A stretch of 61,647 bases of DNA from Lentisphaeria bacterium UBA1776 (GTDB taxonomy: Bacteria > Verrucomicrobiota > Lentisphaeria > Victivallales > Victivallaceae): contig DCGO01000095.1 in NCBI GenBank assembly GCA_002314605.1, positions 1-61,647 of the forward strand, written 5' to 3'. Position 1 is the first letter of the stretch; the number at the start of each line of letters is the position of its first letter. Below, in pieces: positions 14,854 to 53,620 of the stretch. The position numbers and the translations under genes were made by a program. A model generated the notes under the pieces. That model did no database searches. It was not told where the DNA came from and worked only from the letters and a program-made list of their open reading frames with translations.

Positions 14854-14874
14854 ATCGGAAAATGGAGTTGCAAC

Positions 14875-18719: not shown

Positions 18720-19166
18720 TCAGCGGATCTTCCGGCAGATAATATCGGTGCCCCGGGCGATCTCCCGGATCTCCTCTTCCGAACAGGTGTCAAAATAGGA
18801 AGTGATGTATTCATTGATGCGGCTTTCCACTCCGGACAAAAATTCCTGTCCCTTGGAAGTAACATCGATGCGGACATTCCGCCGGTCCTCCGGGTTATCG
18901 GTCCGGTTCAGAAATCCCCGCTGGACAAGTTTATCCACAAAAAGCGACGCTCCGGCGCTGGTAAGTCCCGTGAGTTCCATGATCTTCCCCAAGTTGCAGG
19001 GCAGAATGAACCGAATGAGCATCAGGTTGAAAAACTGCCCCCGCAGAAGTCCGCAGGGATTGCGTTTCCACTCCGCCGCCAGAAGTTCCCTCCGGCGCAT
19101 TTCCAGCAGCCGGCAGCTGAGTTTGAACATCTCCAGATCCGGACGCTTTGATTTCGTTTCCGACAT
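18720..19166 (-). CDS. MarR-family transcriptional regulator
   Basis: 148 aa. Has a winged-helix block NLGKIMELTGLTSAGASLFVDKLVQRGFLNRTDNPEDRRNVRIDVTSKGQEF. Starts 20 nt downstream of the secretin gene on the same strand. Confidence 0.8.
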   Translation of the reverse strand: MSETKSKRPDLEMFKLSCRLLEMRRRELLAAEWKRNPCGLLRGQFFNLMLIRFILPCNLGKIMELTGLTSAGASLFVDKLVQRGFLNRTDNPEDRRNVRIDVTSKGQEFLSGVESRINEYITSYFDTCSEEEIREIARGTDIICRKIR

Positions 19167-27143: not shown

Positions 27144-27250
27144 TACGCTTCCGCCGGAATTGTAAAAAAAACACCATCGGGACTTGAAAAAAACTCCGAT
27201 GGGGTTATGTTTCCCGATATACGGTACAGACTACTCTTTTGGGGACCATT

Positions 27251-28990
27251 ATGGCAAGAGATTCGGAATATATTCTTGAGCTGCTTCTGGATTACGGACT
27301 GGTGAATGAGGAGCAGATCAGCCAGGCCAAGGCGGAATCCAAGTCGGTGGACGGCAGCCTCGACCCGGTGGACCTGCTTCAGAAACTGGGATATCTGAAG
27401 TCGGAGGACCTGACCGCAATGCTGGCACAGCATTACGGCATGGAGATCATGGATCTCAAAAAATACGAGATCCCGGATGAAGTGGTCCAGGCGCTGACAC
27501 CGGATATTGTTCATCACTACAACGTGGTCCCGGTCATGCGGCACGGCGACATGCTGACCGTGGCCATGAGCGACCCGACGGATCTGGAAACATTGGACTC
27601 CATCCGTTACTATCTGGGGCGGGATGTGGAAGCGGTGGTTGCCGATCCGGGGCAGATCAAGCAGCTGATCGACAAATATTATCCCACCGCCGGTGCCGGC
27701 GGCAGCGTGGAAAACCTGATCGAGACTCTGGGGGAGGAGAGCAACGATTTTCTGGTGGAGACCGGCGCGGATACTTCCGGCGGCGGCACCATCGGCGGAG
27801 CGGAGACGGTGGGGGAAGAGACTGCACCGGTGATCAAACTGGTGCACATGCTGATCATTGAGGCATACAAGGCCAAGGCATCGGATATTCACCTGGAACC
27901 CATGGAAAAACGCTACCGGGTCCGCTACCGTATTGACGGGGCCTTGCGGGAGGTGGAAGGGCCTCCCAAATTCATGCAGGCAAGTTTCACCAGCCGCGTC
28001 AAGATCATGAGCCGGCTGGATATCACCGAAAAACGCATCCCCCAGGACGGACGTATCAAGATGCGCGTCAACGACAAGGATATCGACCTGCGTGTTTCCA
28101 GTATCCCCACCACCCACGGCGAAAGTATCGTCATGCGTATTCTGGACCGGGCCAGCATCCAGCTGGACATCCCGAAACTGGGGTTCTATGCGGACGACCT
28201 GGAACTGGTGAACGGGATCATCAACATGCCGGACGGGATCTTCCTCGTCACCGGGCCCACGGGGTCCGGCAAGACCACCAGTCTGTACGCATTTCTGAAC
28301 ACCATCAATACCGTGAGCCGAAAGATCATCACCGTGGAGGACCCGGTGGAATACCAGCTGGACGGTATCAACCAGGTGCAGGTGGACCGGGCCATTGAAA
28401 TGACTTTTGCCGCAGCACTGCGCGCCATGCTCCGTCAGGCGCCGAACATCATCATGGTGGGAGAGATCCGAGACCTGGAAACGGCGGAAATCGCCATCAA
28501 CGCCTCGCTTACCGGACACCTGGTGTTCAGTACCCTGCACACCAACGATGCCCCCGGCACCATCGCCCGACTGGTGGATATGGGGGTCAAACCATTTCTG
28601 GTGGCCTCTTCCGTGCGTGCGGTCATGGCCCAACGGCTGGTGCGCCGGATCTGCAAGAACTGCAAGAAACCTTACAGCCCGAGCAAATATGAGATTCAGC
28701 TTCTGGGGATGACCCAGGAGTATCTGGACAGTCACCAGTTCTACAAGGGTACCGGCTGCGACAAGTGCGGCCGCACCGGATACAAGGGCCGGGTGGGTAT
28801 TTACGAGATTTTCATGGTCACCGAAGATCTGGCCAAGCTCATTTTCCGCAACGAACCCAGCAGTACGATCCGGGAAGCCGCCCGGCGGAACGGCATGCGT
28901 TCTCTGCGGGATGATGCCATCCGCAAGGCGGAAGCCGGGACGACCACGCTGGAAGAGGTAATCTACACGACCCTCATGGACGAAAACTGA
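27251..28990 (+). CDS. GspE/PilB-family type IV filament assembly ATPase (copy 1)
   Basis: 579 aa from ATG 27251. Has a T2SSE_N-like N-terminus, the Walker A block [43 protein letters not shown], and a tetracysteine cluster CKNC...CDKC. Confidence 0.9.
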   Translation: MARDSEYILELLLDYGLVNEEQISQAKAESKSVDGSLDPVDLLQKLGYLKSEDLTAMLAQHYGMEIMDLKKYEIPDEVVQALTPDIVHHYNVVPVMRHGDMLTVAMSDPTDLETLDSIRYYLGRDVEAVVADPGQIKQLIDKYYPTAGAGGSVENLIETLGEESNDFLVETGADTSGGGTIGGAETVGEETAPVIKLVHMLIIEAYKAKASDIHLEPMEKRYRVRYRIDGALREVEGPPKFMQASFTSRVKIMSRLDITEKRIPQDGRIKMRVNDKDIDLRVSSIPTTHGESIVMRILDRASIQLDIPKLGFYADDLELVNGIINMPDGIFLVTGPTGSGKTTSLYAFLNTINTVSRKIITVEDPVEYQLDGINQVQVDRAIEMTFAAALRAMLRQAPNIIMVGEIRDLETAEIAINASLTGHLVFSTLHTNDAPGTIARLVDMGVKPFLVASSVRAVMAQRLVRRICKNCKKPYSPSKYEIQLLGMTQEYLDSHQFYKGTGCDKCGRTGYKGRVGIYEIFMVTEDLAKLIFRNEPSSTIREAARRNGMRSLRDDAIRKAEAGTTTLEEVIYTTLMDEN

Positions 28991-29004
28991 TCGAGGTAAA
29001 GATT

Positions 29005-30705
29005 ATGCTTGATACCGAAAGTTTGGCACTCATTGACCTGCTGATCAACGAACGGGGGGCCGACAATCCGGCGCTGAAGGATCAGCTCAAGGAAGTGGAG
29101 GAAGAACACGCCCGCTCCGGAAAGCCGGTGCTGGAGATCATCGAGAACTACGGGATCTTCAAACGCAAGGAGATCCTGGATATGATAGCGGAAAGTCTGG
29201 GCTCCTATGTCTGGACCACTTTCGATACGGAGGATATTGAGCTGGAGGTCATCAAGAAAGTTGACCAGAATACCGCCCGGAGTTACAAAATCATCCCGCT
29301 GAAGATCGATGAGAGCGGCACGATGCTGCTTGCCATGCGGAATGCACTGGACTTTCAGACAGTGGAATCTCTGCAGTTCATTCTGAACGTGACCATCCAG
29401 CCGGTGGTGGTGGACCCGGATGTGCTGGACGCCCAGCTGGACCGTTATTACCCGGAGAAAACCGACAATGTCCACGACATTCTGGAAGTACTGAAAGACA
29501 GTGCCGAAGGGGAGAAGGTGGACGAAAAGGACATTGAGTCCATGGCCAACGATGCGCCGGTGGTGAAATTCGTGGATGTGGTCATGCAGCAGGCTATCCG
29601 GGACAAGGCGTCGGATATCCATTTCGAGCCCTTTGAGAAAGAATTCCGCATCCGTTACCGGGTGGACGGCGCGCTGTACGAAATGCCCCAGCCGCCGAAA
29701 AGTCTGGCGGTCCCGGTCATCAGCCGCGTGAAAATCATTTCCGGACTGAATATTTCCGAGCGCCGCCGCCCGCAGGACGGCCGTATCGAGCTCAGGGTCA
29801 ACGGCAAACCCATTGACATGCGTGTATCGTGTCTGCCCACAAGCTACGGGGAATCCGTGGTGCTCCGGGTGTTGGACCGGTCGGTGGTGAATCTGGATCT
29901 GGATGCCCTCGGCATGGAACCGGCGCTCCTCAATAAACTCCGGGAGATCATCCATCTGCCCAACGGGATTTTGCTGGTGACCGGTCCCACAGGGTCCGGC
30001 AAGACCACAACATTGTATTCGGCGCTGCGGGAAATCAACGTGGTTTCCGACAAACTGCTGACCGCCGAAGACCCGGTGGAGTACGATATCGAAGGGATCG
30101 TGCAGGTCCCCATCAACGATGCCGTGGGCATGACCTTCGGCAAAGCGCTGCGGGCCTTTCTGCGGCAGGACCCGGACCGGATCCTGGTGGGAGAGATCCG
30201 CGACTTCGAAACTGCCCAGATCGCCATTGAAGCGGCCCTGACGGGACACTTCGTCTTCAGTACACTGCATACCAACGATGCCGCCAGTACGGTGACTCGA
30301 CTGGTGGATATGGGGGTGGAACCCTTCCTCATCTGTTCTTCCGTGTCCGGGATTCTGGCCCAGCGGCTGATCCGCCGGGTCTGTTCGGAGTGCAAGACCA
30401 GTTACGTTCCAACCGATCAGGACCTCAAGCGGCTGCGCATCGACCGTTCGGAAATCGGCGACCACCTGTTTTATTACGGCAAGGGGTGCAGTGTCTGTCA
30501 CGGTACCGGATACAAGGGCCGGAAAGCCATCTGCGAACTTCTGGTGGTCAATCAGGAGATCCGGGACCTTATTTTTGCAGGGGCCCCGCACACCGCCATC
30601 CGGGACAAGGCGAGGGAACACGGAATGCGGACAGTCCGGGAAGACGGTCTGCAGGCGATCTTCAACGGCGAGACATCCGTGGACGAGGTCGTCCGCTATA
30701 CATAA
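29005..30705 (+). CDS. GspE/PilB-family type IV filament assembly ATPase (copy 2)
   Basis: 566 aa with the same architecture: [47 protein letters not shown]...CSVC. Starts 14 nt after copy 1. Confidence 0.9.
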   Translation: MLDTESLALIDLLINERGADNPALKDQLKEVEEEHARSGKPVLEIIENYGIFKRKEILDMIAESLGSYVWTTFDTEDIELEVIKKVDQNTARSYKIIPLKIDESGTMLLAMRNALDFQTVESLQFILNVTIQPVVVDPDVLDAQLDRYYPEKTDNVHDILEVLKDSAEGEKVDEKDIESMANDAPVVKFVDVVMQQAIRDKASDIHFEPFEKEFRIRYRVDGALYEMPQPPKSLAVPVISRVKIISGLNISERRRPQDGRIELRVNGKPIDMRVSCLPTSYGESVVLRVLDRSVVNLDLDALGMEPALLNKLREIIHLPNGILLVTGPTGSGKTTTLYSALREINVVSDKLLTAEDPVEYDIEGIVQVPINDAVGMTFGKALRAFLRQDPDRILVGEIRDFETAQIAIEAALTGHFVFSTLHTNDAASTVTRLVDMGVEPFLICSSVSGILAQRLIRRVCSECKTSYVPTDQDLKRLRIDRSEIGDHLFYYGKGCSVCHGTGYKGRKAICELLVVNQEIRDLIFAGAPHTAIRDKAREHGMRTVREDGLQAIFNGETSVDEVVRYT

Positions 30706-30738
30706 TTTTGCAACAGGTTCAACAGGGAGAATTTTCTG

Positions 30739-31812
30739 ATGATTGAGATGGCGGATCTTCTGCAGTTTTGCGTGGACGAGGGGGCAAGCGACCTGCATAT
30801 TGAGGTGGGGGCGCCTCCCAGCGTCCGGTTGCACGGGGATATTACCCAGCTTGAACTGCCGCCGCTGACGCCGGAGGATTCGGAGCATCTCCTGAAATCC
30901 ATTGCTTCGGATGCCCATCTGCAGCAGATCCAGGCGGAGGGAACTGCGGACTTCGGGGTCGGGTTCGGGGATCAGGCCCGGTTCCGTGTCAGCGCTTTCC
31001 GGCAGAAAGGCTGCTTCGGGATCATTCTGCGCCAGATCCCAAACCAGCTGCTGACCTTTGAACAGCTCGGGCTGCCCGGCGCGGTAAAGGATCTCCTGTG
31101 GCGGCCCCGGGGGCTGGTGCTGGTGACCGGTCCCACCGGATCCGGCAAATCCACCACACTGGCCAGCATGATCAATATCATCAATACCGAGCGGGCCTGC
31201 AACATCATTACCATTGAGGACCCCATTGAATTCTACCACCAGCACAAAAAAAGTCTGGTCATGCAGCGGGAGGTGGGGGTGGATACCACCAGTTTTTCCG
31301 AAGCGCTGCGCCGGGCGCTGCGTCAGGACCCGGATGTGATTCTGGTGGGGGAAATGCGGGATATTGAGACGATCGGCGCAGCGGTTTCAGCGGCGGAAAC
31401 AGGACACCTGGTGTTCGGCACGCTGCACACCACCGGTGCGGCCCGGACGGTGGACCGGATCGTGGATGCCTTCCCGACCAATCAGCAGGAGCAGATCCGC
31501 ACCCAGCTGGCCAGTTCGCTGGTGGGGGTCATTTCCCAGCAGCTTCTGAAACGCTGCGACAAATCCGGCCGGGTCGCCGCCTTTGAGATCATGGTGAACA
31601 CGCCGTCCATTCAGGCGCTGATCCGGGACAACAAGACCTTCCGGATCACCTCGGAACTGCAGACCGGGGCCAAATTCGGGATGAACACCATGGATTCCCA
31701 CCTTGTGGAACTTTTCCGGGCGGGAAAGATCGATTATCCGGAAATGATTACCCACGCCCAGGACCAGGATGCCGTAATTGAGAAACTCCGGGCCGAAGGG
31801 GATCTGAAGTAA
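30739..31812 (+). CDS. pilT: PilT-type retraction ATPase
   Basis: 357 aa with no N-terminal T2SSE_N domain. Has [62 protein letters not shown] and [17 protein letters not shown]. Confidence 0.9.
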
Positions 31813-31833
31813 CACAGGAAAGGAGCCTCGCAA

Positions 31834-33090
31834 ATGCCTCATTATCTTTATACAGCCGTGAATGCTTCCGGCAAGGAGCAGAAGGGCAAGATCCAGGCGG
31901 CCAGTCCGGAGGAAGCAGCCGAGCTTCTGAAGAAACAGCAGCTCTTCATCACCTCCATCAAGGACGCTGATGCCAAAAAAAACGCCCCCGCCGCCAAAAA
32001 AGGCAAGGCCAAGGGCGGTGCCATGAACATTTCTCTGGGGGCCCCCGTCATCAAGAAAAAGGAGCTGGTGGTGCTGACCCGGCAGCTGGCGACATTGCTG
32101 GATGCGGGACTGCCCCTTATCCGTTCACTGCGGACACTGGAGCGGCAGGCCAAAAACCCCGTTGTGGCCAAGGTTCTCAATTCAGCGGCGGAAACCGTGG
32201 AAGGCGGCGCCACTTTTGCCGAAGCGCTGGCCAAGCACCCGAAATCCTTCGATAAACTCTATCTCAACATGATCCGTGCCGGAGAGGCGTCGGGTGCCAT
32301 GGAAGTCATTCTGAACCGTCTGGCGACCTTCATGGAAAAAGCCTCCAAGATCGCCGGCAAAGTCAAGTCCGCCATGATCTACCCGGCGGTGGTGCTCTCC
32401 ATCGCCGGTCTGGTCACCGCCGGTTTGATGGTATTCATCGTGCCGAACTTCCAGAAGATCTTCGGTGAACTCCTTGGTCCGAAGGAACCCATGCCGGCCA
32501 TTACCCAGCTGGTCATGAATACCAGTAAGCTCATGAAGGAGCAGGGGTGGATCTTTCTGGTGGCCGGTGCGGTTATCATCGTGCTGTACAAAATCGTCAA
32601 CAGCAATAAATACGGCAAGTGGGGCATCGACTGGGTCAAGTACAATATGCCGCTTTTCGGGCCTTTGATTTCGCGGACGGCCATTTCCCAGTTTGCCCGT
32701 ACCCTGGGCACGCTGATGAGTTCCGGCGTGCCGGTGCTGAATGCGCTTATCATTGTCCGGGATACCGCCGGCAATGAGGTGGTGACCACCGCCATTCAGA
32801 AAGTCCACGATGCGGTGAAGGAAGGTGAAGGCATTGCCGGCCCCCTGGGTGCCACCGGAATCTTTCCCGCCATGGTGATCAGTATGGTGGAAGTCGGCGA
32901 AGAGACAGGTAAGCTTCCCGACATGCTTGACCGTATTGCCGATACCTACGATGAAGAAGTTGACAATGCTGTGGGAGCCCTGACAAGTATGATCGAACCC
33001 CTGATGATCGTGGGACTGGCAGTGGTCGTGGGTACCATCGTTGTGGCGCTCTTCCTCCCGCTGACCAAGCTGATCGAAAAACTGGGTTGA
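31834..33090 (+). CDS. GspF/PilC-family inner-membrane platform protein
   Basis: 418 aa with two repeated T2SSF-type modules (..LATLLDAGLPLIRSL.. and ..LGTLMSSGVPVLNAL..) and three TM segments. Confidence 0.9.
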   Translation: MPHYLYTAVNASGKEQKGKIQAASPEEAAELLKKQQLFITSIKDADAKKNAPAAKKGKAKGGAMNISLGAPVIKKKELVVLTRQLATLLDAGLPLIRSLRTLERQAKNPVVAKVLNSAAETVEGGATFAEALAKHPKSFDKLYLNMIRAGEASGAMEVILNRLATFMEKASKIAGKVKSAMIYPAVVLSIAGLVTAGLMVFIVPNFQKIFGELLGPKEPMPAITQLVMNTSKLMKEQGWIFLVAGAVIIVLYKIVNSNKYGKWGIDWVKYNMPLFGPLISRTAISQFARTLGTLMSSGVPVLNALIIVRDTAGNEVVTTAIQKVHDAVKEGEGIAGPLGATGIFPAMVISMVEVGEETGKLPDMLDRIADTYDEEVDNAVGALTSMIEPLMIVGLAVVVGTIVVALFLPLTKLIEKLG

Positions 33091-33091
33091 T

Positions 33092-33826
33092 ATGCAGCTT
33101 CTGAATGTCGGGAACACCCGGATCACGGCGGCGGAATATGAAGGGGAGATCATCCGCAATATCCGCAGTACACTGACCCGGGATTACCGGATCCCTGAGG
33201 GGGACGAGCTGATTCTGGCGGCCTCGGTGGTTCCGAAATTTTCGGACCGGCTGGTCCGGCGGGGCAATGTCTTTCTCCTGCAGAACATTCATGCCGCCGC
33301 CTGCGGGCTGGATCTTTCCGCCGTGGATGCTTCCACATTGGGGGCGGACCGGCTGGCCAATGCCATTGAACTGGTCTGTCAGGCAAAACTTCCCGCCATG
33401 ACCATTGATCTGGGAACCGCCATCAACTGCGAAATCGTGGATCGGAATGGTTTTTTCCGCGGCGGCGCCATTGCCCCGGGGCGGCGGATGATGCTCCAGA
33501 GTCTGTATGGAGGAACGGCGCAGCTGCCGGAGCTTTCCGTCCGGCAGGAACTGCGGGAAATGCCCGGGACCAACACCCGGGAAACGATTTTCTTCGGCGT
33601 GGATCAGGCTGTGGCGGGAATGATCCGCCGCTGGATCGGGTGCGTGGCGGAAATGCTTCACGAAATGCCCCGGGTGGTGGCGATTGGCGGAGATGCCCCG
33701 CTCTACATTCCCCTGATTCCGGAACTGGAATCCGGCGGAGAGGATTTTACCCTCCGCGGGCTTCTCCGGGGCTGGGACCGGTCGCTGCCCGGACTGGCGC
33801 ACCGGACCGGCGGTGAGGTCAAATGA
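33092..33826 (+). CDS. coaX: type III pantothenate kinase
   Basis: 244 aa. Has LLNVGNTRI, GADRLANAI, IDLGTAINCEIV, GGAIAPG and GTAQLPE. The start is 1 nt after the platform-gene stop. Confidence 0.85.
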   Translation: MQLLNVGNTRITAAEYEGEIIRNIRSTLTRDYRIPEGDELILAASVVPKFSDRLVRRGNVFLLQNIHAAACGLDLSAVDASTLGADRLANAIELVCQAKLPAMTIDLGTAINCEIVDRNGFFRGGAIAPGRRMMLQSLYGGTAQLPELSVRQELREMPGTNTRETIFFGVDQAVAGMIRRWIGCVAEMLHEMPRVVAIGGDAPLYIPLIPELESGGEDFTLRGLLRGWDRSLPGLAHRTGGEVK

Positions 33827-44132: not shown

Positions 44133-44150
44133 GCGGTATCAAGATACCGC
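44133..44150. terminator. hairpin between convergent genes (candidate bidirectional terminator)
   Basis: GCGGTAT-caag-ATACCGC, a perfect 7-bp stem with a 4-nt loop, between the GH4 stop (44091) and the minus-strand pilin stop (44150-44152). No strong U-tract. Confidence 0.35.
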
Positions 44151-44635
44151 TAATTGGTGATGTCGTCGGCGTTATTGGCGGTATTGTCCGGGCCAATGGA
44201 GCGAACCGTGAAAGCCTTGTGATTTGCGGTATCGGGAGAGGTGTAGAGAAGTTTGTTTCCCCAGGCATCGCAGAGTTCGCCATCGGCATCAATGTACTGC
44301 CGCAGGGATTCCAGATCCAGCATCTTGCGGAAATCTTTGACGTACCTTTCCGGCACATTGCCCCAGCGGATGTTGAGCGCGTTGTCCGCAATGTCGGCAC
44401 CGCCGGTGTCCAGCAGCTGAATGTGGTTCCCGGTTCCCAGTGCAGTCGAATAAAACCCGTGCTTGACCTTGCCGGACTCCAGGGCGGCTTCGATTTGCTT
44501 GATGACGGCCCGGGTGGCGGATTCCCTGGCGGAATTGTTGGCGTAGGAGTAGCCCCCGATGGCAATCCCGGCCAGGACCGCCAGCAGCGCCACCACCATC
44601 ACGATTTCAATCAGGGTGAAAGAAAATTTTTTCAT
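44150..44635 (-). CDS. GspG-like (major-type) pseudopilin, second copy
   Basis: 161 aa. Has the N-terminus MKKFS-FTLIEIVMVVALLAVLAGIAIG with Glu at +5, then DAWGNKLLY and SIGPDN..NNADDITN, which resemble the GspG DPWGNPY and GPDG..DDI motifs. Confidence 0.75.
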   Translation of the reverse strand: MKKFSFTLIEIVMVVALLAVLAGIAIGGYSYANNSARESATRAVIKQIEAALESGKVKHGFYSTALGTGNHIQLLDTGGADIADNALNIRWGNVPERYVKDFRKMLDLESLRQYIDADGELCDAWGNKLLYTSPDTANHKAFTVRSIGPDNTANNADDITN

Positions 44636-44646
44636 AAATAAAGTTC

Positions 44647-45255
44647 CTATTTTTTCTTTTTTTCTTCGACAAATTTCGGCTGTTTGGCCTTGGCGGCGGC
44701 TTCCTGAGCATTCAGGCGCTCAAGGACGGCTTTTTTGATGTCGGCAAGATTGTTCATCCGCTTGACGTTGGTGCATTTGACGGGGCGGCGGCTGACCGCC
44801 CAGTACTCCTTGGCGGTCTTGTTGTAATAGTCGTACCACTGACGGTATTCCTGACTGGCGGTCTGTTTATTGGCGGCCAGAAACCCGAGCTGGATCTTGG
44901 CTTTCAGCAGGGCTTCGGCATAGGCGATGTTCTGTTTGACCCAGCGGCGGGAAAGGCCGGAATCGGATTCGAGAAAATAATACTTGTCGAACCGCTTCAA
45001 ATCCAGAATGTCGAAGCGGAGTTTCGGGACCGTCACATTTTTCCCCTGCAGAAAATCCTTGGAAATGGCGGAAATCTGCAGTTTCAGATACTCGTCGGAA
45101 AGGGCGCTCTTCACCCACTGGAGTTCCATGCCGGAAAAGGTTTTGGGAACGTCCGGCGGGATCTCCACCGCCGCCTTCTTCTTCCCCCGGGGGGCGGCGG
45201 CCAGAGTGAGCGCCAGCATCAGAAGCAGCAGGAGTGAAAAAAGATGTTTCAGCAT
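44647..45255 (-). CDS. secreted Lys-rich protein of unknown function
   Basis: 202 aa with a signal peptide (LLLLLMLALTLAAAP) and a very basic C-terminal tail (AAKAKQPKFVEEKKKK). No family recognised. Embedded between the GspK-like and GspG-like genes with 11-12 nt gaps. Confidence 0.5.
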   Translation of the reverse strand: MLKHLFSLLLLLMLALTLAAAPRGKKKAAVEIPPDVPKTFSGMELQWVKSALSDEYLKLQISAISKDFLQGKNVTVPKLRFDILDLKRFDKYYFLESDSGLSRRWVKQNIAYAEALLKAKIQLGFLAANKQTASQEYRQWYDYYNKTAKEYWAVSRRPVKCTNVKRMNNLADIKKAVLERLNAQEAAAKAKQPKFVEEKKKK

Positions 45256-45267
45256 GGTTGATGATCC

Positions 45268-48261
45268 TTAATCCAGCGGTTCCAGCCGCAAAAGTTTGAC
45301 TTTCCGGTTTGCGGCATCGGTGCCGATTTCGGCGTAGAAGCGCACGGTTCCGGTGATCTCGTCAAAATAAACCCCGTTGTTTCCAATCTCAAATTTTCCG
45401 GAATAGACTGTGGCCGTTTCCGCAGCCGCACCGGGATTGTCCGGCCGCTGTTTGCTGACGGAGAAGCCGGCGGTGGTTCCGATATCCCGGATGGACTGCG
45501 CCGCCAGGATCAGCGTCACCGGGTCCGGGGGCCGGGGATAAAAGCTGACCAGACCGGATACCAGTGCGGGAATGGTTTCCTGCTGGGCGTCCGTAGTTGG
45601 GGCGACCTGGCCGTAGGCATTGTACAACTTCTGACCGCTGGCGGGGGAATAATTGACCAGTTCCGCCCGGCTGAAGAATTTCAGATCCGGCGTCGCAGCT
45701 GTATCCCGTCGGGCCAGAATATTTCCGGCGGCAACCGCCTGTGTTTCCCCAATGGCGGTCCCGGCATATTCATAATTCCAGTGATCCGGCCAGTTCCAGA
45801 CCAGTCCCCGGAAAAGTCCGGCATAAAGCAGGGTGCTTTCCACGGTATTTGCCCCAGGCGGATTGTTGATACAGAGCCGGTGGGGGACTTGGACCCGGGG
45901 GGTGAGTTTGACCTGGTCCAGAATCCCGGCATCCCCCTGTGCATAGGTATCCCCCTCATCTTCCATGCCGGAAAGAGGTGTGTCCGTGGGGACCCTTCTG
46001 GTGGCCCTTAAGTTGAGGGTCTGCCACTTGGCGGCACGGTGAATGCCTCCCAGTTCCGCAAAAGACTGCATGGGAGCGTTGCGGATATAAGCGCTGGAAA
46101 TATTTTCCGGCAATGCCGCCGATTCCATGTCCTTGTCGGCAACGGCTCCGGCACTGTTGGCCGGGTTGCAGAAATCGTTTTTGGTTTTGAACGTAAACTT
46201 TATTCCCATGGCGGCTTCGCTGCCCGCCGCGGTCCCGGTCCCGGTCCCGGTCCCGGAAACCGTTTCCGGACCGTCTCCAGATCCCGTCCCCATGGAAGCG
46301 GGGACTTCCACCGGACGCCAGTTCATGGAGGCAACCTCGGTTTGGGACCCCTGATACAGGTTTTCCCGGGGATCATCCGCCTCAAATCCGATATGGGGAT
46401 AGAAGGTCAGGGATTCATCGCTGCTGAAGGATGTATTGAGAAGCGTTGTTCCGTCTCCAAATTGCTCAAAAACCAGATCCCGGACATAATCAACACTGCC
46501 GTCGGATGTTTTCAGATGCACATTGCTGATGGAAAGTTTTTTGATTTTGACCTTGGCGTTCAGAGGGGCCGTCAATTTTATAGTGCTTTGCGGGGTGGAG
46601 AAATTCAAAGACCCGAGGGTAATGGAATTTCCTGCCGCATCGGTCAGAACCAGATTGGCATCGGGAGTTCCGTTGAGCGACAGGATTTTGTACGCATAGC
46701 GCCCGTCTGCGGTCCAGGCGGAGGCGGAACCGCTCAGGGGAATGGAAAATGCACACTTGACTTCCTGAATACGCTTTGCGTCCGCGATGGTCTGTTCCCC
46801 GTCAATGATCTCCACGGTAAACGAAAACTCCCCGGCAATGGACACATCCATATCCGGCATGGTTTCTTCATACATATTGAAGACCTCCACCGCCGCAATG
46901 CGGAGGCCGATGTCATAGCTGTACTCGTACTGGTATTGCGGCGGCTGGCCGTCGGTACCGGGAAAAGCCGTCTCCTGACGCCGGAGCGAAATGGAGGGCC
47001 CGATCATGATCTCATTGATGTACGGGGTCTTTTCATTGCCGGTATAGGTGGGAGGCGTGGTTTCCCAGTCAGCGGAATCCGAGGTGGCAATGCTGTCGGT
47101 ATCGCAGTAGTCGATCAGATTGGCGGCGATCTGCTTCCTTCTGGCGGTCAGGGTGGGATAACTTCCCTTGTCCTTGTGGATCCGGCGCAGGGCGGGGATG
47201 CTGTCAGCCGTTTTCGTGACGTCCCCCACACCCAGCACCGGCAGTGTCATACCTTCTCCGAGAAGCCGCAGGACCAGAGCGTCACTGTTTTTAATATTGC
47301 TCTCGTTACCCAGTTGCTCCCAGTCCGTCCGGGTCAGGTCGAAGCGGTGATATTTGACGTGACTTCCCGGAGTGTTGGGGTTAAAATCCTGTTTGTTGTA
47401 CGCATTGGCGTTGGCCGTGGTGTCCACGTACATATAAACTTCCTCCTCCGTGCCGCTCGGCGGCAGGAACCGGCGGATCACATTGCGCATGCCCAGGGAC
47501 AAGCTGGTCCTGCCGTTGAACATGTCCTGAAAAGTGCTGTAATCGTTGGCCCGGGCGGAATCCTGCTCTTGGCATGTTGTTTTGATGGACTCTTCCGAAG
47601 CGAAACGGTTGTCCAGATCATCCAGCTGCGTTTTCTGCCAGTCCGTCGGATTGGTCAACGTGGTATCCAGATTCAATTCCCGGATACCGAATCCCCGCCG
47701 TCTGGTCCATGTGCTTTTCGTATTCGTGGGAGAAAGGGCCGGATTTCCCCGCAGGATCTCCGAAAAATTCACCGAGCCGGTGGGGAGGATCCAGTAGGCG
47801 TACCGGCCGATGATGGTCGCATTATTGGCCCGGCGGCCGTCGGCATTGTACCCGCTCCAGAGATACTGCCACTGTTCCAAACCGGAAGCCCGGCGCTCTG
47901 TATTGTCGATGGTGGCGGTCAAAAGACTGGTGGCGGGGGTACTCAATTGATCGTTCCGGCCGGCGGCCGGGACATCCTCTTCGCCGGCTTTGAAAACCTC
48001 GGAATTGATGGAGCTCTTCAAATTGCCGATGCCGTCGGCGTCCCCTTGCTGCAGATAGTAGCGCATCAGCATCATGACCCGGTTGACGGCGGAGCGCCCC
48101 AGGAGATTCGCCTGGGTGCGGAAGCGGTAGGCGGCGGCGGTCTTCTGGGAAAGCAGCGTATTGGTGATGAAGGCGATCCCGGTGGCCAGGAGGAGGCTCA
48201 AGATCCCCAAAGAGAGCAGCAGAGCCACTCCATCCTGGCGGTGTTCTGCACGATATTTCAT
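45268..48261 (-). CDS. giant GspK-like minor pseudopilin
   Basis: 997 aa. The N-terminus HRQDGVALLLSLGILSLLLATGIAFI.. is a GspK-style hydrophobic segment without Glu+5. The gene lies directly after the J-like gene (TAATG overlap). A late block reads IRNAPMQSFAELGGI. Confidence 0.65.
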   Translation of the reverse strand: MKYRAEHRQDGVALLLSLGILSLLLATGIAFITNTLLSQKTAAAYRFRTQANLLGRSAVNRVMMLMRYYLQQGDADGIGNLKSSINSEVFKAGEEDVPAAGRNDQLSTPATSLLTATIDNTERRASGLEQWQYLWSGYNADGRRANNATIIGRYAYWILPTGSVNFSEILRGNPALSPTNTKSTWTRRRGFGIRELNLDTTLTNPTDWQKTQLDDLDNRFASEESIKTTCQEQDSARANDYSTFQDMFNGRTSLSLGMRNVIRRFLPPSGTEEEVYMYVDTTANANAYNKQDFNPNTPGSHVKYHRFDLTRTDWEQLGNESNIKNSDALVLRLLGEGMTLPVLGVGDVTKTADSIPALRRIHKDKGSYPTLTARRKQIAANLIDYCDTDSIATSDSADWETTPPTYTGNEKTPYINEIMIGPSISLRRQETAFPGTDGQPPQYQYEYSYDIGLRIAAVEVFNMYEETMPDMDVSIAGEFSFTVEIIDGEQTIADAKRIQEVKCAFSIPLSGSASAWTADGRYAYKILSLNGTPDANLVLTDAAGNSITLGSLNFSTPQSTIKLTAPLNAKVKIKKLSISNVHLKTSDGSVDYVRDLVFEQFGDGTTLLNTSFSSDESLTFYPHIGFEADDPRENLYQGSQTEVASMNWRPVEVPASMGTGSGDGPETVSGTGTGTGTAAGSEAAMGIKFTFKTKNDFCNPANSAGAVADKDMESAALPENISSAYIRNAPMQSFAELGGIHRAAKWQTLNLRATRRVPTDTPLSGMEDEGDTYAQGDAGILDQVKLTPRVQVPHRLCINNPPGANTVESTLLYAGLFRGLVWNWPDHWNYEYAGTAIGETQAVAAGNILARRDTAATPDLKFFSRAELVNYSPASGQKLYNAYGQVAPTTDAQQETIPALVSGLVSFYPRPPDPVTLILAAQSIRDIGTTAGFSVSKQRPDNPGAAAETATVYSGKFEIGNNGVYFDEITGTVRFYAEIGTDAANRKVKLLRLEPLD
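46231..46254. repeat. hexanucleotide microsatellite (GGTCCC)x4 inside the GspK-like gene
   Basis: Four perfect tandem copies read directly from the sequence. They encode (Gly-Thr)4 in SGTGTGTGTAAG on the minus strand. Confidence 0.9.
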
Positions 48262-49037
48262 TAAAACACCCCTAAGTAAATGATCCGGACAAATTCGTAT
48301 TCGTTTTCCTGACGGAACTGCAGCTGGGCGGCGTTTTCCGTCCCGGCCCCCCGCTGCGCGATCCAGGTGTCAAAGGCGTTCTTCGGCATCATTTTCAGGG
48401 TGATCTGCACCGCATGGGGGAACACTCTTGAGGAATACGCGCCGGAGTTCAGGATGTTGAACCCGCTTCCGAAGAGCCGGAATCGGAGTTCCGTAATATG
48501 CCCGACAATGGTTTCCGTGTTATTGGTGAAAACAGTGGATGCCGGACAGGCGGCAGCATTGATGAAATTCGTATTCCCGTTGTCGTTGGCCACCTTCAGC
48601 ACCTGATCGGCGATCACGCCGTTGTCAAGTTTGTTTTCCAGCCAGAAAGACATGTAAAACGCCTTCTGAAATTCCGTTGCCGATGTATGGGAGGAGGGAT
48701 AAAAGGGGGAGTTCCGTGAAAGGTTCACCGGGAAGATCAGCCGCCCGGAGGTATTGTTGTCCGCCGTGGCGCCGAACCAGAAGATCTCCTGATTGTAGGT
48801 GTCGCCGGCTGCCTGATAATAAACGCTCTGCAGTGCGCTGGACATCAGGTCCATGGCGATCCGGGCGTCCGCATACATGTTGTTTTTATCGTCCGTCCGG
48901 CTCCACAGTTTCTGGGTGTCCGTAAAGAATCCAATCACCATCATCATCATGATGGAAAAAATCGCCATGGCGACGATCAGCTCCACCAGGGTAAAGGAGG
49001 ATTTCCGGAACCTGTGTTGAATTTTTCTCATGGTCAT
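48261..49037 (-). CDS. GspJ-like minor pseudopilin
   Basis: 258 aa. Has the N-terminus ..RFRKSS-FTLVELIVAMAIFSIMMMMVIGFF (Glu+5) and sits in the J position of a G-H-I-J-K array. Confidence 0.7.
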   Translation of the reverse strand: MTMRKIQHRFRKSSFTLVELIVAMAIFSIMMMMVIGFFTDTQKLWSRTDDKNNMYADARIAMDLMSSALQSVYYQAAGDTYNQEIFWFGATADNNTSGRLIFPVNLSRNSPFYPSSHTSATEFQKAFYMSFWLENKLDNGVIADQVLKVANDNGNTNFINAAACPASTVFTNNTETIVGHITELRFRLFGSGFNILNSGAYSSRVFPHAVQITLKMMPKNAFDTWIAQRGAGTENAAQLQFRQENEYEFVRIIYLGVF

Positions 49038-49039
49038 GA

Positions 49040-49600
49040 TCAGGCTCCGTAGTCGTAAAGATCAAACCGGTAAATCTGCTTTTCCCGGTCGGCATAAGGT
49101 TTCGTCAGGGGGTAGCTCACTTCGATGAAAATGATTGCGGAACCGGTGGTCATGGAAACCGGAGCCGCCTGGCCCGGAACATGGATGAAATTGCTTTCCC
49201 TCCAGACTCTGGCTTCGGCGGCGAAATCCACCACCGATGCACCATTCACCGTATGGCTCTGCTCATACTTGAAAAGCCCCGCCGTCCCGCAATAGAATAC
49301 CGGCGTATTGGGAATATTGGTCCAGCCGATGGAGGCCGGTTCGCCCGGTTTTGCGGTAGGAAGTCCGTTCAGCAGGGTACTGGAGCGGGGAGAGGTCCCG
49401 GACCGCTGCCACTGATCGCGGATGCTGGTTTCCAGATATCCGGCAAAATACAGCGCCGCATCGGGAACGCTGTTGTCGGCGGTGGCGCTGTTGGTGGCAT
49501 TCAGCCCCACCGGGAAGAGGACCAGGATGCTGGACATGCCGATGGCGATGACCCCCAGCGCCAGCATGATCTCGATCATATTGAAGAACTGCTTTTTCAT
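49040..49600 (-). CDS. GspI-like minor pseudopilin
   Basis: 186 aa. Has the N-terminus MKKQF-FNMIEIMLALGVIAIGMSSILVLFP (Glu+5). The start overlaps the H-like stop (ATGA). Confidence 0.65.
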   Translation of the reverse strand: MKKQFFNMIEIMLALGVIAIGMSSILVLFPVGLNATNSATADNSVPDAALYFAGYLETSIRDQWQRSGTSPRSSTLLNGLPTAKPGEPASIGWTNIPNTPVFYCGTAGLFKYEQSHTVNGASVVDFAAEARVWRESNFIHVPGQAAPVSMTTGSAIIFIEVSYPLTKPYADREKQIYRFDLYDYGA

Positions 49601-50268
49601 TTGATCCTGCCGTTTTCATCAATTTCGGAAACCAGGGCACGACCGGTAAAACGGTTGACGGTGACGGCCATGACGTTGGCGGTGGCATTGCTGCCGCTCC
49701 GCTGGCTCTTATAGATATAATTGCCGTTGGACAATGTGGCCTCCCCCACGCCGATGTAGAAATTCTGATTGGGAGCGACCACGTTCCCGTAGGCGGCGTA
49801 CACGATCCCGGGGCGGGAAGCCGTCGCTCGCCCGACCACCCCGGTGATCGTCTGCAGTGCCGAGGTTCCCGGCGCGGCTCCGTTGGTGGGAAACGAGGGC
49901 TGCGTCCCTTCGCCGCCGTTGTCGAAGATCAGCATCTGGGCGTCTTCCTTCAGCGGGACCCAGTCGGAACCCTCCACCCATCCTTGAAATGCATAAGTAT
50001 TGGAAACATAGCAGTTCCGCAGCGCCTGCGTGTCGGTGAGGCCGGAAACGGTACCGCCCAAGTCAATCACCGTCGCCACGTATTTCCGGTCGTTGATGGC
50101 CCGGGCCTGGGCGAGGTCGAGAGTGTTTTTGATGAGGCCGCAGGTCACGGCCACGCTGTTCCCGTGCATCAAGGCTGAAAAGGCCGGCAGCGCCATGGCC
50201 GCCAGCATGGCCGCCAGCGCCATCACCACCATGATCTCAATTAACGTATAATGCCGAACCTCTTTCAT
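49597..50268 (-). CDS. GspH/FimT-like minor pseudopilin
   Basis: 223 aa from ATG 50268. Has the N-terminus MKEVRH-YTLIEIMVVMALAAMLAAMALPAF (Glu+5). The ORF track extends to a GTG at 50301. Confidence 0.7.
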   Translation of the reverse strand: MKEVRHYTLIEIMVVMALAAMLAAMALPAFSALMHGNSVAVTCGLIKNTLDLAQARAINDRKYVATVIDLGGTVSGLTDTQALRNCYVSNTYAFQGWVEGSDWVPLKEDAQMLIFDNGGEGTQPSFPTNGAAPGTSALQTITGVVGRATASRPGIVYAAYGNVVAPNQNFYIGVGEATLSNGNYIYKSQRSGSNATANVMAVTVNRFTGRALVSEIDENGRIK

Positions 50269-50288
50269 ACGGCCCCTGCTGTTCCGCT

Positions 50289-50990
50289 TTACTTTTCCCA
50301 CCCGCGGACATCGTCGGTCTGGGAAGTGCCGCCGTTGTCGGAATTGAAACTGCCGTTATCGGCGCCATTGGGGCCGTAAGAGTAGATGAACACTTTGCCG
50401 TGCAGCACCAGATTGTTTCCGTCATAATTGGCCGGCGGATTCAGAACCTGGGCGGCGGGGATATAGACCTTTTCCGAACTGTCGGTGCAGATATTGATGT
50501 CATAGGGATTTCCCCACGGGTCGCGCCAAAGTGTGCTGTCATCGCCGGAACTGTAATCCGCCCGGGGATCCAGATACTTGATGTTGCGGATATTGAAATT
50601 CTTGTCGGAAGAAGTCACATCCCGGGGAACCGACAATTCCCGGATCAGGGCATTGTACTGGGTCGAGGAACTGCCGTTGTAGCGGACTACATGGACCGTA
50701 TTGCTGCTGTATGCAGTGGCATTTCTTGCAATGGCGCCGCCATTCACGTTGTAACTCGAATTGACTCTCAAGATCGTCTTGTAATCCCGCTCCACGCCGG
50801 AGAGGGCCATCTTGATGGCACTCATGTCCGCCTTCGCCTGAGTGATCATGCCCCTGGTCTTCGCACTCTGGATCGCCGGAATACCCAAGCCGGCAAGCAG
50901 CACGATGATCCCGATCACCACCAGCAGCTCCACCAGCGTAAACGCCGATCTCTGTTGCATGATGTGTTGAGATGTGTAACCCGTCTTCAT
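50289..50990 (-). CDS. GspG-like major pseudopilin, first copy
   Basis: 233 aa with GGGAGG 6 nt upstream of ATG 50990. Has the N-terminus ..MQQRSA-FTLVELLVVIGIIVLLAGLGIPA (Glu+5) and RDPWGNPY. Confidence 0.8.
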   Translation of the reverse strand: MKTGYTSQHIMQQRSAFTLVELLVVIGIIVLLAGLGIPAIQSAKTRGMITQAKADMSAIKMALSGVERDYKTILRVNSSYNVNGGAIARNATAYSSNTVHVVRYNGSSSTQYNALIRELSVPRDVTSSDKNFNIRNIKYLDPRADYSSGDDSTLWRDPWGNPYDINICTDSSEKVYIPAAQVLNPPANYDGNNLVLHGKVFIYSYGPNGADNGSFNSDNGGTSQTDDVRGWEK

Positions 50991-51020
50991 TTCAAGCCTC
51001 CCGAGGATTGTTTTCTATAT

Positions 51021-51359
51021 TTATTTCATCTTCAATTCAGATTGCAATTGCCGCAACAGCGGCTGCAGGGGCGGCAAATCCTTTTGAATCGTTTCCCAAA
51101 CCAAAGAATAATCCGTCTGCACATAATCGTGAATCAGAACATTACGCATTCCGGCCATCACCCGCCACGGGATTTCCGGGTGGGAATCCCGGACTTTTTC
51201 TGAAACCCGGCCGGCGGCTTCCCCGATGATCAGAAAATTATAGGATACCGCGTCCTGTTCCAAAACAGACTGCAAAAATTCCTCTTTGCCGCAAGCCGTT
51301 TCACGGATCCTGGCAATGGCGGCCAGAATATGACCGATACGTTGTTCATCTGTAATCAT
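51021..51359 (-). CDS. hepT: HepT (DUF86) RNase toxin of a type VII toxin-antitoxin pair
   Basis: 112 aa from ATG 51359. Has the Rx4HxY motif in GMRNVLIHDY. The start overlaps the mntA stop (ATGA). Confidence 0.85.
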   Translation of the reverse strand: MITDEQRIGHILAAIARIRETACGKEEFLQSVLEQDAVSYNFLIIGEAAGRVSEKVRDSHPEIPWRVMAGMRNVLIHDYVQTDYSLVWETIQKDLPPLQPLLRQLQSELKMK

Positions 51360-51649
51360 AACAGGATCATATCCTTTTGAACACAGGAGCCGAAAACCGG
51401 ATCCCGCAAAGCGGATGAGGGAATCACGTCCACCTTGCACTGCAGCATATCCGCCAAAGCCAGCTGCATATTCACCTGATCGAACAACGAGGCTTTTTCG
51501 GAAAAATCCGCCAAAATATCCACATCGCTTTTCGGAGTTTCCTCCCGGCGCGCACAGGACCCGAACACATAAACCTTCCGGGCATGGTGCAGCCTGGCGA
51601 TCCGGTTGATCTCCGCCTTCATCTGACAGATTTTATCAAGTTGACACAT
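51356..51649 (-). CDS. mntA: MNT-type nucleotidyltransferase antitoxin
   Basis: 97 aa from ATG 51649. Has the nucleotidyltransferase motif VFGSCARREETPKSDVDIL (GSx..SDxD). Confidence 0.85.
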   Translation of the reverse strand: MCQLDKICQMKAEINRIARLHHARKVYVFGSCARREETPKSDVDILADFSEKASLFDQVNMQLALADMLQCKVDVIPSSALRDPVFGSCVQKDMILL

Positions 51650-51768
51650 CCTGCCGTCAAGCCTTTCCGGTAATGGCGAAACATTCGCGCGGCCAGGCAG
51701 AACCCTCCAGCCGCCGCGACACATGCCCGGGCGGCATCCCGCCGGAGCGGCACGTTTGCCGTCGCTAT

Positions 51769-51797
51769 ATTGTACGTCAGGAAGGGGGAGATTGCAA
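51769..51797 (-). promoter_or_regulatory. candidate sigma70-type promoter for mntA-hepT (and possibly the pseudopilin operon)
   Basis: On the minus strand: TTGCAA (51797-51792), a 17-nt spacer, then TACAAT (51774-51769). Confidence 0.45.
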
Positions 51798-51838
51798 GCG
51801 GCAATCGGATATTTTTTGAAAGAATTTTGGAAAAAAGC

Positions 51839-51866
51839 TTGAAAAAGCGCCGGGGAACGCTAAAAT
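51839..51866 (+). promoter_or_regulatory. candidate sigma70-type promoter for the DUF1559-type pilin-like gene
   Basis: TTGAAA (51839-51844), a 16-nt spacer, then TAAAAT (51861-51866), about 45 nt before ATG 51913. Confidence 0.45.
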
Positions 51867-51912
51867 ATGGGAAGATGTTTTGCAGAAACATGTTTCAGGA
51901 AAGGATCGAGAG

Positions 51913-52638
51913 ATGAAGAGAGAACAATATACCCTGATCGAGCTTCTGGTGGTGATCGGGATCATTGCCCTGCTGGCGGGACTGCTGCTGCCGGCTTTGA
52001 ATTCCTCGCGGATCTCCGCCCGGGCGGCGGCCTGCATCAGCAACCAGAAACAGGTTGTGACCGCCATCATCCAGTCCATCAGCGGCAACAAGGACCGTTT
52101 CTATTCTCCGAGATATGACGGAACGAACAATGGGGCAAGTGATGCCACGGTCCGCTGGAGCGCCCGGCTCTACAACCGGAAGTATCTGCAGGACTACAAG
52201 ACCATGCGGTGCACGGAGACCATATTCCCCCCCCCAAGTCAGGGGTCGTACCGGGAAGATGCATTTACCTACGGTGCGGTGTATCACGATGCGGCGGTCA
52301 CCACCGGCTTTGATTTCCGGGGGACCCGGTGTCTGACCACTTCCGGCGGGGATGATGTGCCGCCCACCAAACTCATGCTGGGCGGCTGTTCCATGAATTC
52401 CAACCACGGAGGCGGCGCACTGCTGGATCTGAGTCAATCGGCAACCAGTTCGAATTCTTACGGCACGCTCTCTCTGGCGCACCGGGACAGTGTCAACATG
52501 TTCTTCCTTGACGGCCGGGTGGCACCGGTGAACAAAGCCGAACTGGATGCGAACAGCACGGGCCGGACGCTCTATTATCCCACCACCGCCAACGGCCCCG
52601 CCGGCCTGGTGCCGGCGCGCTACAACAACGGCAAGTGA
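51913..52638 (+). CDS. prepilin-type N-terminal domain protein of the DUF1559 (H-x9-DG) class
   Basis: 241 aa from ATG 51913. Has MKREQ-YTLIELLVVIGIIALLAGLLLPALNSSRISARAAACISNQKQ and, near the C-terminus, AHRDSVNMFFLDGRV. Confidence 0.8.
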   Translation: MKREQYTLIELLVVIGIIALLAGLLLPALNSSRISARAAACISNQKQVVTAIIQSISGNKDRFYSPRYDGTNNGASDATVRWSARLYNRKYLQDYKTMRCTETIFPPPSQGSYREDAFTYGAVYHDAAVTTGFDFRGTRCLTTSGGDDVPPTKLMLGGCSMNSNHGGGALLDLSQSATSSNSYGTLSLAHRDSVNMFFLDGRVAPVNKAELDANSTGRTLYYPTTANGPAGLVPARYNNGK

Positions 52639-52666
52639 TCTCACATATTTCCCAAGGATCCGTGAT

Positions 52667-53620
52667 ATGATGAAGCAGACATTTCTTTTTGCGGCACTGG
52701 CCGTATTCTCCTCTCTGTTTTTCTGCGGCTGCGGCGATGCTTCCGGAGAAAAGACAAAGATCGGCATTTCCATCCCCGCCGCCGACCACGGCTGGACCGG
52801 CGGATGCGTCTATTGGGCCAATCAGGCCAAAAAGAGTATTGAGAAGGCTCATCCGGATCTGGAGGTCATCGTTTCCACCGCCCGGGACGCGGCCGAACAG
52901 GTGGATAAAGTTGAAAATCTGATGGTCCAGGGGATCAAAGCCCTGGTCATCCTCCCCCATGAACCCGGGCCGCTCACCGGCGTCTGCGAGCAGGCCAGAG
53001 CCAAAGAGATCAAACTCATCACCGTTGACCGGGGACTCTCAAAGGATATTGCGGATGTGGTGGTCGCCGGAGACAATCCCGGATTCGGCCGGGCCGGAGC
53101 GGCGGCCATTGCCAGGGCCCTGAACGGCAAAGGCGATATCGTGATGATGGAAGGCATCCCCTGCGTGGTCAATTCCGACCGGGTCAACGCTTTCCGCGCC
53201 GAGATCGCCAAATATCCCGATATCCGCATTCTGGACAGCCAGTCCGCCGGATGGGATACCGCAAAAGGGCTGAAGCTCATGGAGAATTTCCTGCAGAAAT
53301 ACCCGAAGATCGATGCGGTGTGGACCGGGGATGACGATGTTCTCCTGGGGGCGCTCAAGGCTTACGAGGAATCCAAACGCAGGGACGTGAAAGCCTTTGT
53401 GGGCGGCGCCGGCGCCAAACTTGTGGTGAAAATGGTTCTGGACAGGCACCCGCTGGTTCCCTTTGACGTCACCTACCCCCCCCGGATGGTGGAGGTCGGA
53501 GCCCAAATGGCATTGAAGCTCCTGGCTCAGGAGATCACCCCGAAGAAACAGATCGTCCCCGCCGAGATCATTGACCCGGCCAATGCTCAGAAGTACTATT
53601 TCCCCGACTCGGTCTTCTGA
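52667..53620 (+). CDS. periplasmic sugar-binding lipoprotein (ribose/xylose-type PBP fold)
   Basis: 317 aa from ATG 52667 with lipobox SLFFCGC. Has KIGISIPAADHGWTGG, the alternating beta-alpha pattern ..GIKALVILPHEP.., ..KLITVDRGL.. and ..VWTGDDDVLLGALKA. Confidence 0.8.
   Translation: MMKQTFLFAALAVFSSLFFCGCGDASGEKTKIGISIPAADHGWTGGCVYWANQAKKSIEKAHPDLEVIVSTARDAAEQVDKVENLMVQGIKALVILPHEPGPLTGVCEQARAKEIKLITVDRGLSKDIADVVVAGDNPGFGRAGAAAIARALNGKGDIVMMEGIPCVVNSDRVNAFRAEIAKYPDIRILDSQSAGWDTAKGLKLMENFLQKYPKIDAVWTGDDDVLLGALKAYEESKRRDVKAFVGGAGAKLVVKMVLDRHPLVPFDVTYPPRMVEVGAQMALKLLAQEITPKKQIVPAEIIDPANAQKYYFPDSVF

Follow-up and report, generated by a model that had tools for sequence, protein, structure and literature searches.

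A stretch of 61,647 nucleotides from Lentisphaeria bacterium UBA1776, a member of the Victivallaceae (contig DCGO01000095.1; hereafter the window), encodes six proteins with a type IV pilin-like N-terminus. None of them has glycine at position -1, just before the aromatic residue (+1) at which a prepilin peptidase would be expected to cut. Glycine at -1 is held to be indispensable in prepilin processing, and is built into the 'GFxxxE' domain, the Pfam N_methyl profile, and the [GAS] rule of PilFind. The six genes encode genuine subunits of the type-IV-pilin class, resembling the pseudopilins of type II secretion systems (T2SS), in a system made of a secretin, PilB-PilB-PilT-PilC, and G-H-I-J-K components. 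The absence of Gly-1 is a trait of the lineage and not an artefact of gene calling, and the cleavage rule of the textbooks probably fails in this lineage. The reading that we favour, with a probability of about 55%, is that these proteins have normal class III signal peptides that would be cut by a PilD with a requirement at -1 that is relaxed when residue +1 is aromatic.

A six-frame scan of the 61.6-kb window for [FY]-x-[LM]-[IV]-E with a helix of at least 88% hydrophobic residues behind it gave exactly six matches, all within positions 44150-52638. These are the N-termini for which the original prediction, made from the DNA letters and their open reading frames (ORFs), had reported A, H, F, S, S, and Q at -1, and every one of these residues was recovered in the sequence and in the scan. 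The operon on the minus strand has the order G1-H-I-J-K-X-G2, where X is a gene encoding 202 amino acids, and is collinear with G-H-I-J-K. The HX9DG-type gene is divergent from G1. The genes are the following:

51880-52638, plus strand: HX9DG-type pilin-like gene; likely Met at 51913, leader MKREQ, Gln at -1 (codon at 51925-51927), then YTLIELLVVIGII.
50289-50990, minus strand: GspG-like pseudopilin G1, 233 amino acids; likely Met at 50960, leader MQQRSA, Ala at -1 (codon GCG at 50943-50945).
49597-50301, minus strand: GspH-like minor pseudopilin, 234 amino acids; likely Met at 50268, leader MKEVRH, His at -1 (codon at 50251-50253).
49040-49600, minus strand: GspI-like minor pseudopilin, 186 amino acids; leader MKKQF, Phe at -1 (codon at 49586-49588), then FNMIE.
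48261-49037, minus strand: GspJ-like minor pseudopilin, 258 amino acids; Ser at -1 (codon at 48996-48998), then FTLVELIV; N_methyl score of 30.7 bits.
45268-48261, minus strand: GspK-like large minor pseudopilin, 997 amino acids; weak GspK match; RQDG/VALLLSLG, with a canonical Gly before the slash.
44647-45255, minus strand: operon member X, 202 amino acids; Sec-type signal peptide, no match to any family.
44150-44635, minus strand: second GspG-like pseudopilin G2, 161 amino acids; leader MKKFS, Ser at -1 (codon at 44621-44623).

All six N-termini have Phe or Tyr at +1 and Glu at +5, both invariant in the alignment of orthologues, and their leaders have 5-6 residues with Lys or Arg (14 residues in the GspJ-like protein). 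It could be argued that the wrong start or register was assigned to the ORFs, or that the genes are decaying pseudogenes, given that the longest ORF begins upstream of the probable true Met in three of the six cases. We find this hardly credible. Internal Met codons in G1, the GspH-like gene, and the HX9DG-type gene give leaders of 5-6 residues, as in the orthologues. The residue at -1 is not affected by the choice of the start codon, and the leaders of the GspI-like protein and of G2 lack any Gly and are preceded by an in-frame stop or by no earlier start codon, which excludes mis-registration. The original prediction had itself raised the possibility of mis-started ORFs or of a missed upstream Gly, and the leaders without Gly and the starts of the orthologues rule it out. 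The G+C content at third codon positions (GC3) is 0.72-0.77 in the six ORFs, as expected for real coding sequence. This gene set recurs in four assemblies made independently for the same species, and the operon and its motifs are kept across species. The orthologues of four species show how the residue at -1 changes: A/H/N/D in G1, H/P/P/H in the GspH-like protein, F/F/Y/Y in the GspI-like protein, S/G/S/S in the GspJ-like protein, and S/G/P/S in G2.

The six N-termini lie at the edge of what current profiles recognise. Ala at -1 in G1 is a known natural alternative to Gly, and three of the six (A, S, S) would still pass the PilFind rule. According to the literature, the cut made by PilD follows Gly or Ala, and PilFind permits [GAS] (PMC3244431). 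The Pfam N_methyl profile (PF07963, cut-off 21.2) scores above its threshold for the GspJ-like protein (30.7) and G1 (21.4), below it for G2 (19.9) and the GspH-like protein (17.9), and has no match in the GspI-like and HX9DG-type proteins. With TIGR02532 (cut-off 16.3), G2 and the GspJ-like, GspH-like, and G1 proteins score 17.4-18.3, the HX9DG-type protein 16.1-16.2, and the GspI-like protein 12.6.

To place these observations in the lineage, we pooled 325 non-redundant Lentisphaeria-like pilin N-termini, with a control of 32 non-redundant N-termini from loci having only distant homologues of G1 (26-35% identity, from soil and marine contigs). The control has only Gly or Ala at -1 (20 and 12 sequences, i.e., 100%; 3.37 bits), whereas the Lentisphaeria-like set has 4.0% of Gly and 3.7% of Ala at this position, which carries 0.59 bits. 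Only 22% of the Lentisphaeria N-termini have a residue of the [GAS] set. The commonest residues at -1 are Asn, Ser, Arg, and Thr. Asn reaches 21.5%, against 3.8% in the background, and the helix N-cap set N/S/T/D/G/P accounts for 55%, against 33.5%. Glu was never found (0/325), and aliphatic or aromatic residues make up 9.5%, against 30% in the background. The composition at -1 is non-random and not fully free, and the contrast with the control is not a matter of chance. Leaders in the lineage consist of Met and 3-6 residues, with Lys or Arg at -3 and -4, and no conserved small residue or motif was seen elsewhere in the leaders of the Lentisphaeria-like set.

The same picture emerges from G1 alone. 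Its 119 homologues have at -1 Asn (28), His and Thr (17 each), Tyr (15), Ser (11), Pro and Asp (8 each), Lys (5), Gly (3), and others. Among the homologues, those 65-71% identical to G1 included, position -1 varies freely (K, P, H, N, G, D), whereas hardly any change is seen in the ~25 residues that come after it, and Glu+5 is invariant in the whole alignment. In the loci of named Victivallaceae genomes, none of the pilin-like matches has Gly at -1. Most orthologues lack a precomputed Pfam domain.

The divergent gene at 51880 belongs to a very large family. Its H-x9-DG motif (AHRDSVNMFFLDG) is C-terminal, behind the prepilin-type N-terminus, and the TIGR04294 model returned no match for it. 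At E ≤ 0.001, the family counts 139,756 cluster representatives. Among the 150 nearest representatives at 50% identity, H-x9-DG is present in 130, the pilin-type motif in 145, and Glu+5 in 148, and leaders are mostly made of Met and 3-6 residues. Phe+1 is found in 143 of the 145 with the pilin-type motif and Gly-1 in only 7. The names of the representatives did not help to sort taxa by their residue at -1, the one named Gly-bearing member coming from Victivallaceae itself. In many Lentisphaeria loci (L097-L145), including those without H-I-J-K, the HX9DG gene is divergently paired with a homologue of G1. In the window and in close relatives, a gene for a periplasmic sugar-binding protein comes next (Peripla_BP_4; together 51880-53620, plus strand), and the cluster is flanked by genes for glycoside hydrolases (GH4, rhamnosidase, GH63-like).

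The statement of the original prediction that none of the six N-termini has the canonical Gly stands, but a seventh pilin-like gene of the operon, the GspK-like one, was overlooked and has it. The N-terminus of this protein, MKYRAEHRQDG/VALLLSLG (Gly codon at 48229-48231), has an aliphatic residue at +1 and no Glu at +5. This is the pattern of GspK of E. coli (EQRG/VALLIVL). The Gly is invariant in the 120 homologues retrieved (120/120), so that selection for a site of the peptidase type is still at work in this lineage. The lineage thus selects the canonical site where +1 is aliphatic and not where it is Phe or Tyr. The GspK-like protein is ~3 times the size of classical GspK and includes a low-complexity stretch of Gly, Thr, and Ser (GTGSGDGPETVSGTGTGTGTAAGSEAA; residues 658-684, positions 46210-46290 on the minus strand).

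The assignment of the subunits to T2SS types relies on gene order and on partial matches. G2 matches Pfam T2SSG with 28 bits (cut-off 21), the only Gsp pseudopilin model to pass, and for this protein alone. G2 and G1 both have a partial match to the GspG model TIGR01710. NCBIfam equivalogs score far below their cut-offs (46.6 and 38.3 vs 88.85 for GspG, 16.1 vs 130 for GspK). The GspH-like gene has weak matches to GspH and to Verru_Chthon D, and the GspI-like gene very weak ones to Verru_Chthon B and PilV. Verru_Chthon scores are also below the cut-offs (C, 51.5 vs 256.5; D, 24.3 vs 70; B, 14.9 vs 51.4), the resemblance being limited to the N-terminal helix, and the search with the TIGR02596/02598/02599/02600 models revealed no cassette protein A among the operon proteins. 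A tblastn search of metagenome loci found only homologues of G1, G2, and the HX9DG-type gene, and none of H, I, J, or K. Only closer relatives have the operon in full. The 202-amino-acid protein is kept between the GspK-like gene and G2 in all operon-bearing relatives (L173, L175). Between the divergent HX9DG gene and the G1 operon lies a HepT-like/nucleotidyltransferase (MNT) toxin-antitoxin pair (51021-51724, minus strand). It is present in contigs of the same species (L001-L004) and absent from this position in the relatives L173 and L175, and thus seems to have been inserted recently. Throughout the window, many long ORFs run antisense to real genes, e.g., 46039-48264 (plus strand) opposite the GspK-like gene and 12388-15537 (minus strand). 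These antisense ORFs are artefacts due to a GC content of 58%, and can be told by a GC1 (first codon positions) higher than their GC3.

The window also encodes the machinery expected to assemble such subunits:

27239-28990 and 29005-30705, plus strand: two PilB/GspE-type ATPases (Pfam T2SSE, MshEN).
30739-31812, plus strand: PilT-type ATPase (Pfam).
31834-33090, plus strand: PilC/GspF platform protein (Pfam T2SSF).
19187-21220 and 21227-22675, minus strand: two tandem secretins of 677 and 482 amino acids (Pfam Secretin, Secretin_N).

The pilB-pilB-pilT-pilC-coaX arrangement (27239-33826 in the window, plus strand), where coaX encodes a type III pantothenate kinase, is kept in 80 genomes of Victivallaceae or Lentisphaeria (L005-L084), with PilT in many of them. 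The 80 best genome matches all come from Victivallaceae, Victivallales, or Lentisphaeria, including Victivallis vadensis, and the PilC of the window is 85% identical to that of the metagenome-assembled genome (MAG) RGIG3837 from the caecum of a roe deer. The window organism is a gut bacterium. Many loci have an extra gene of ~1.2 kb between pilC and coaX, which in V. vadensis is a nucleotidyl-transferase-like ORF. The tandem secretins adjoin a MarR regulator (18720-19166), and this secretin pair, with MarR, is only ~7 kb from the pseudopilin operon in the relative L173.

Prepilin peptidases of the A24 family are GxGD aspartyl proteases. The original prediction saw no gene for one of them in the window, and this was borne out. 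Scanning the coding ORFs with Pfam gave no match to PF01478, with or without PF06750, and phmmer and jackhmmer searches of all six-frame ORFs with E. coli and Lentisphaeria A24 proteins as queries gave none either. The gene table of a contig of the same species was also negative. An A24 gene lies within 10 kb of pilC in three of the 80 related genomes, in the order pilC-coaX-aroE-A24. This proximity looks incidental because it is so rare and because A24 there follows aroE, which encodes shikimate dehydrogenase. In every neighbourhood inspected (L063:11851-13634, L087, L089, L178, L180, L183), the A24 gene was directly downstream of aroE and not beside pilB or pilC. On contig L063, the A24 gene is accompanied by a gene for a pilin-like protein that has Pro at -1.

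We found ~40 clusters of Lentisphaeria-type A24, at 37-67% identity to the aroE-linked query, all with PF06750 and PF01478. Several of these clusters are named prepilin peptidase and come from Victivallaceae, Lentisphaeria, or Lentisphaerota MAGs. Their alignment keeps the four cysteines (CxxC...CxxC) and both catalytic aspartates, including the one of GxGD. Lentisphaeria-type enzymes have lineage-specific residues beside both catalytic Asp (GWGDVK[FY] vs G[GFLM]GDVKL), as well as V201, A127, W132, A148, L216, and P220. The window organism's own A24 was not located. Two candidates for it from samples that also contain this species, P0142 (JGI 3300020112) and P0149 (SRR1221442), were rejected on the basis of their GC content (63-65% vs 56-58%) and of a tetranucleotide correlation of 0.85, against 0.98 for contigs of the same species.

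Under the reading that we favour, position -1 would have lost the requirement for Gly or Ala and would now tolerate nearly all polar or helix-capping residues (Asn, Ser, Thr, Arg, His, Pro, Asp, and others). The leader, still short and basic, Phe or Tyr at +1, Glu at +5, and the hydrophobic helix are all retained under strong constraint. A bifunctional PilD-type A24 enzyme, encoded elsewhere in the genome and typically downstream of aroE, would still cut between -1 and Phe+1 and methylate Phe+1. Its P1 pocket would be relaxed when P1' is aromatic, and the active-site substitutions may be responsible for it. The GspK-like subunits, in which +1 is aliphatic and Glu+5 is missing, would still need the canonical Gly. 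The original prediction had offered relaxed or shifted specificity as explanations. Relaxation fits the evidence best, and we prefer to regard it as conditional, rather than as a shift, because the GspK-like subunit of the same operon keeps an invariant Gly. In its most general form, the proposal is that a whole bacterial class has changed the way in which class III signal peptides are recognised, and that PilD of Lentisphaeria/Victivallales cleaves with essentially any polar residue at P1, even Pro, Asp, or Lys, and recognises its substrates by the aromatic P1' and the helix, with Gly needed for GspK-type subunits. We hold this version tentatively, at a little less than even odds.

Several points weigh against this reading. 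Cleavage itself is inferred from the sequences. Mutagenesis of PilD in P. aeruginosa has reportedly shown that residues other than Gly or Ala at -1 block processing, and, to our knowledge, Pro, Asp, or Lys at P1 would be unprecedented for a bacterial A24 enzyme. The correlation between an aromatic +1 and the lack of Gly-1 depends on one family only, that of the GspK-like proteins. The 325 N-termini are kin, so p-values overstate their independence and are only indicative. The split between 'Lentisphaeria' and 'other' A24 was made by E-value rank and is approximate, with few members named, and the association of the A24 substitutions with specificity is only suggestive. Finally, the A24 gene of the window organism was not found among contigs from shared samples.

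One could instead propose that the leaders are never cut, and that the proteins are N-terminally anchored membrane or periplasmic proteins derived from pilins, especially in the HX9DG family. The basic stub of five residues would then stay in place, -1 would drift, and only the GspK-like protein would be a true substrate. This main rival seems unlikely, even if it explains several observations: position -1 carries almost no information, canonical PilD requires Gly or Ala (PMC3244431), and, among the subunits, the GspK-like protein alone retains Gly, in all its homologues. It is also hard to square the number of HX9DG representatives with all of them being subunits of filaments. However, Phe+1 and Glu+5 are essentially invariant, and leader length is tightly held at about 5-7 residues. 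In known pilins, Phe+1 and Glu+5 matter for N-methylation and for pairing with the free N-terminus. Uncut leaders would also leave the major GspG-like subunits G1 and G2 unprocessed in the presence of a complete secretin, ATPase, and platform machinery, and they do not account for a residue at -1 that is non-random, resembles a helix N-cap, and avoids Glu. Processing by another protease, or at some other bond of the leader or the helix, instead of by PilD at -1/+1, seems more improbable still. It would agree with the finding that 77 of the 80 genomes have no A24 gene close to those for the pilins or the machinery, and the window has a Trypsin_2 peptidase gene after pilC-coaX. Yet this gene was discarded as an alternative processing enzyme since none of the 80 related loci has it at this position. 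Moreover, many members of the lineage encode a canonical A24, and the leaders have no alternative conserved small residue or motif. Conditional relaxation of PilD remains for us the best account of these data.

If the proposal is correct in its most general form, these would be the first bacterial A24 peptidases with a specificity independent of P1, and a natural system to study the role of the 'invariant' Gly-1. If a whole class associated with the gut and the environment uses hundreds of Gly-less pilin-like proteins per genome, the comparison of Lentisphaeria with canonical PilD would provide a handle on the choice of the scissile bond by A24 GxGD proteases, and the G/H/I/J-type subunits without Gly and the K-type with an invariant Gly offer an internal contrast for experiments. 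Under the same condition, the repertoire of pilins, pseudopilins, and HX9DG proteins of the class would be systematically under-annotated. In the present case, N_methyl and TIGR02532 scores sit at their thresholds and most orthologues have no precomputed Pfam domain. The full texts that we searched on Lentisphaerae/Victivallis, on H-X9-DG/DUF1559 proteins, and on prepilin cleavage in Planctomycetes do not describe this property, an absence that is no proof of novelty.

How does this system compare with known ones? It is closest to the GspG-H-I-J-K pseudopilins of T2SS (gsp of E. coli, pul of Klebsiella), with which it shares gene order, a basic leader, Phe+1, Glu+5, and the hydrophobic helix, as well as a secretin, a GspE-type ATPase, and GspF encoded in the window. 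It differs from them in that GspG-K of E. coli all have Gly at -1, whereas the G, H, I, and J subunits of the window have A, H, F, and S. Besides, K has three times the size, two G-like genes and an extra gene encoding 202 amino acids are present, a PilT-type ATPase accompanies two PilB-type ATPases, and no GspC, L, or M was recognised. The six proteins function like T2SS pseudopilins, and we set them apart from the classical ones because the Gly-1 motif fails and the equivalog scores are below the cut-offs. There are also resemblances to the H-X9-DG/DUF1559-type families and the Verru_Chthon cassette of the Planctomycetes-Verrucomicrobia-Chlamydiae (PVC) group: the 51880 gene has H-x9-DG, and the H-, I-, and J-like proteins match best, if weakly, cassette proteins D, B, and C, respectively. 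The Lentisphaeria A24 enzymes resemble PilD/GspO (MEROPS A24A) in their PF06750 and PF01478 domains, their cysteines, and both catalytic Asp, and differ from them in having substrates without Gly or Ala at -1 and a gene linked to aroE rather than to pilBC. The archaeal PibD has been described as having a broad substrate specificity. The substrates of PibD and of ComC in Gram-positives have Ala and sometimes Ser at -1, which are still small residues, and the distant relatives outside the Lentisphaeria-like group that we sampled keep Gly or Ala. In contrast, the residue at -1 in Lentisphaeria is commonly Asn, Arg, His, Tyr, Pro, Asp, or Lys.

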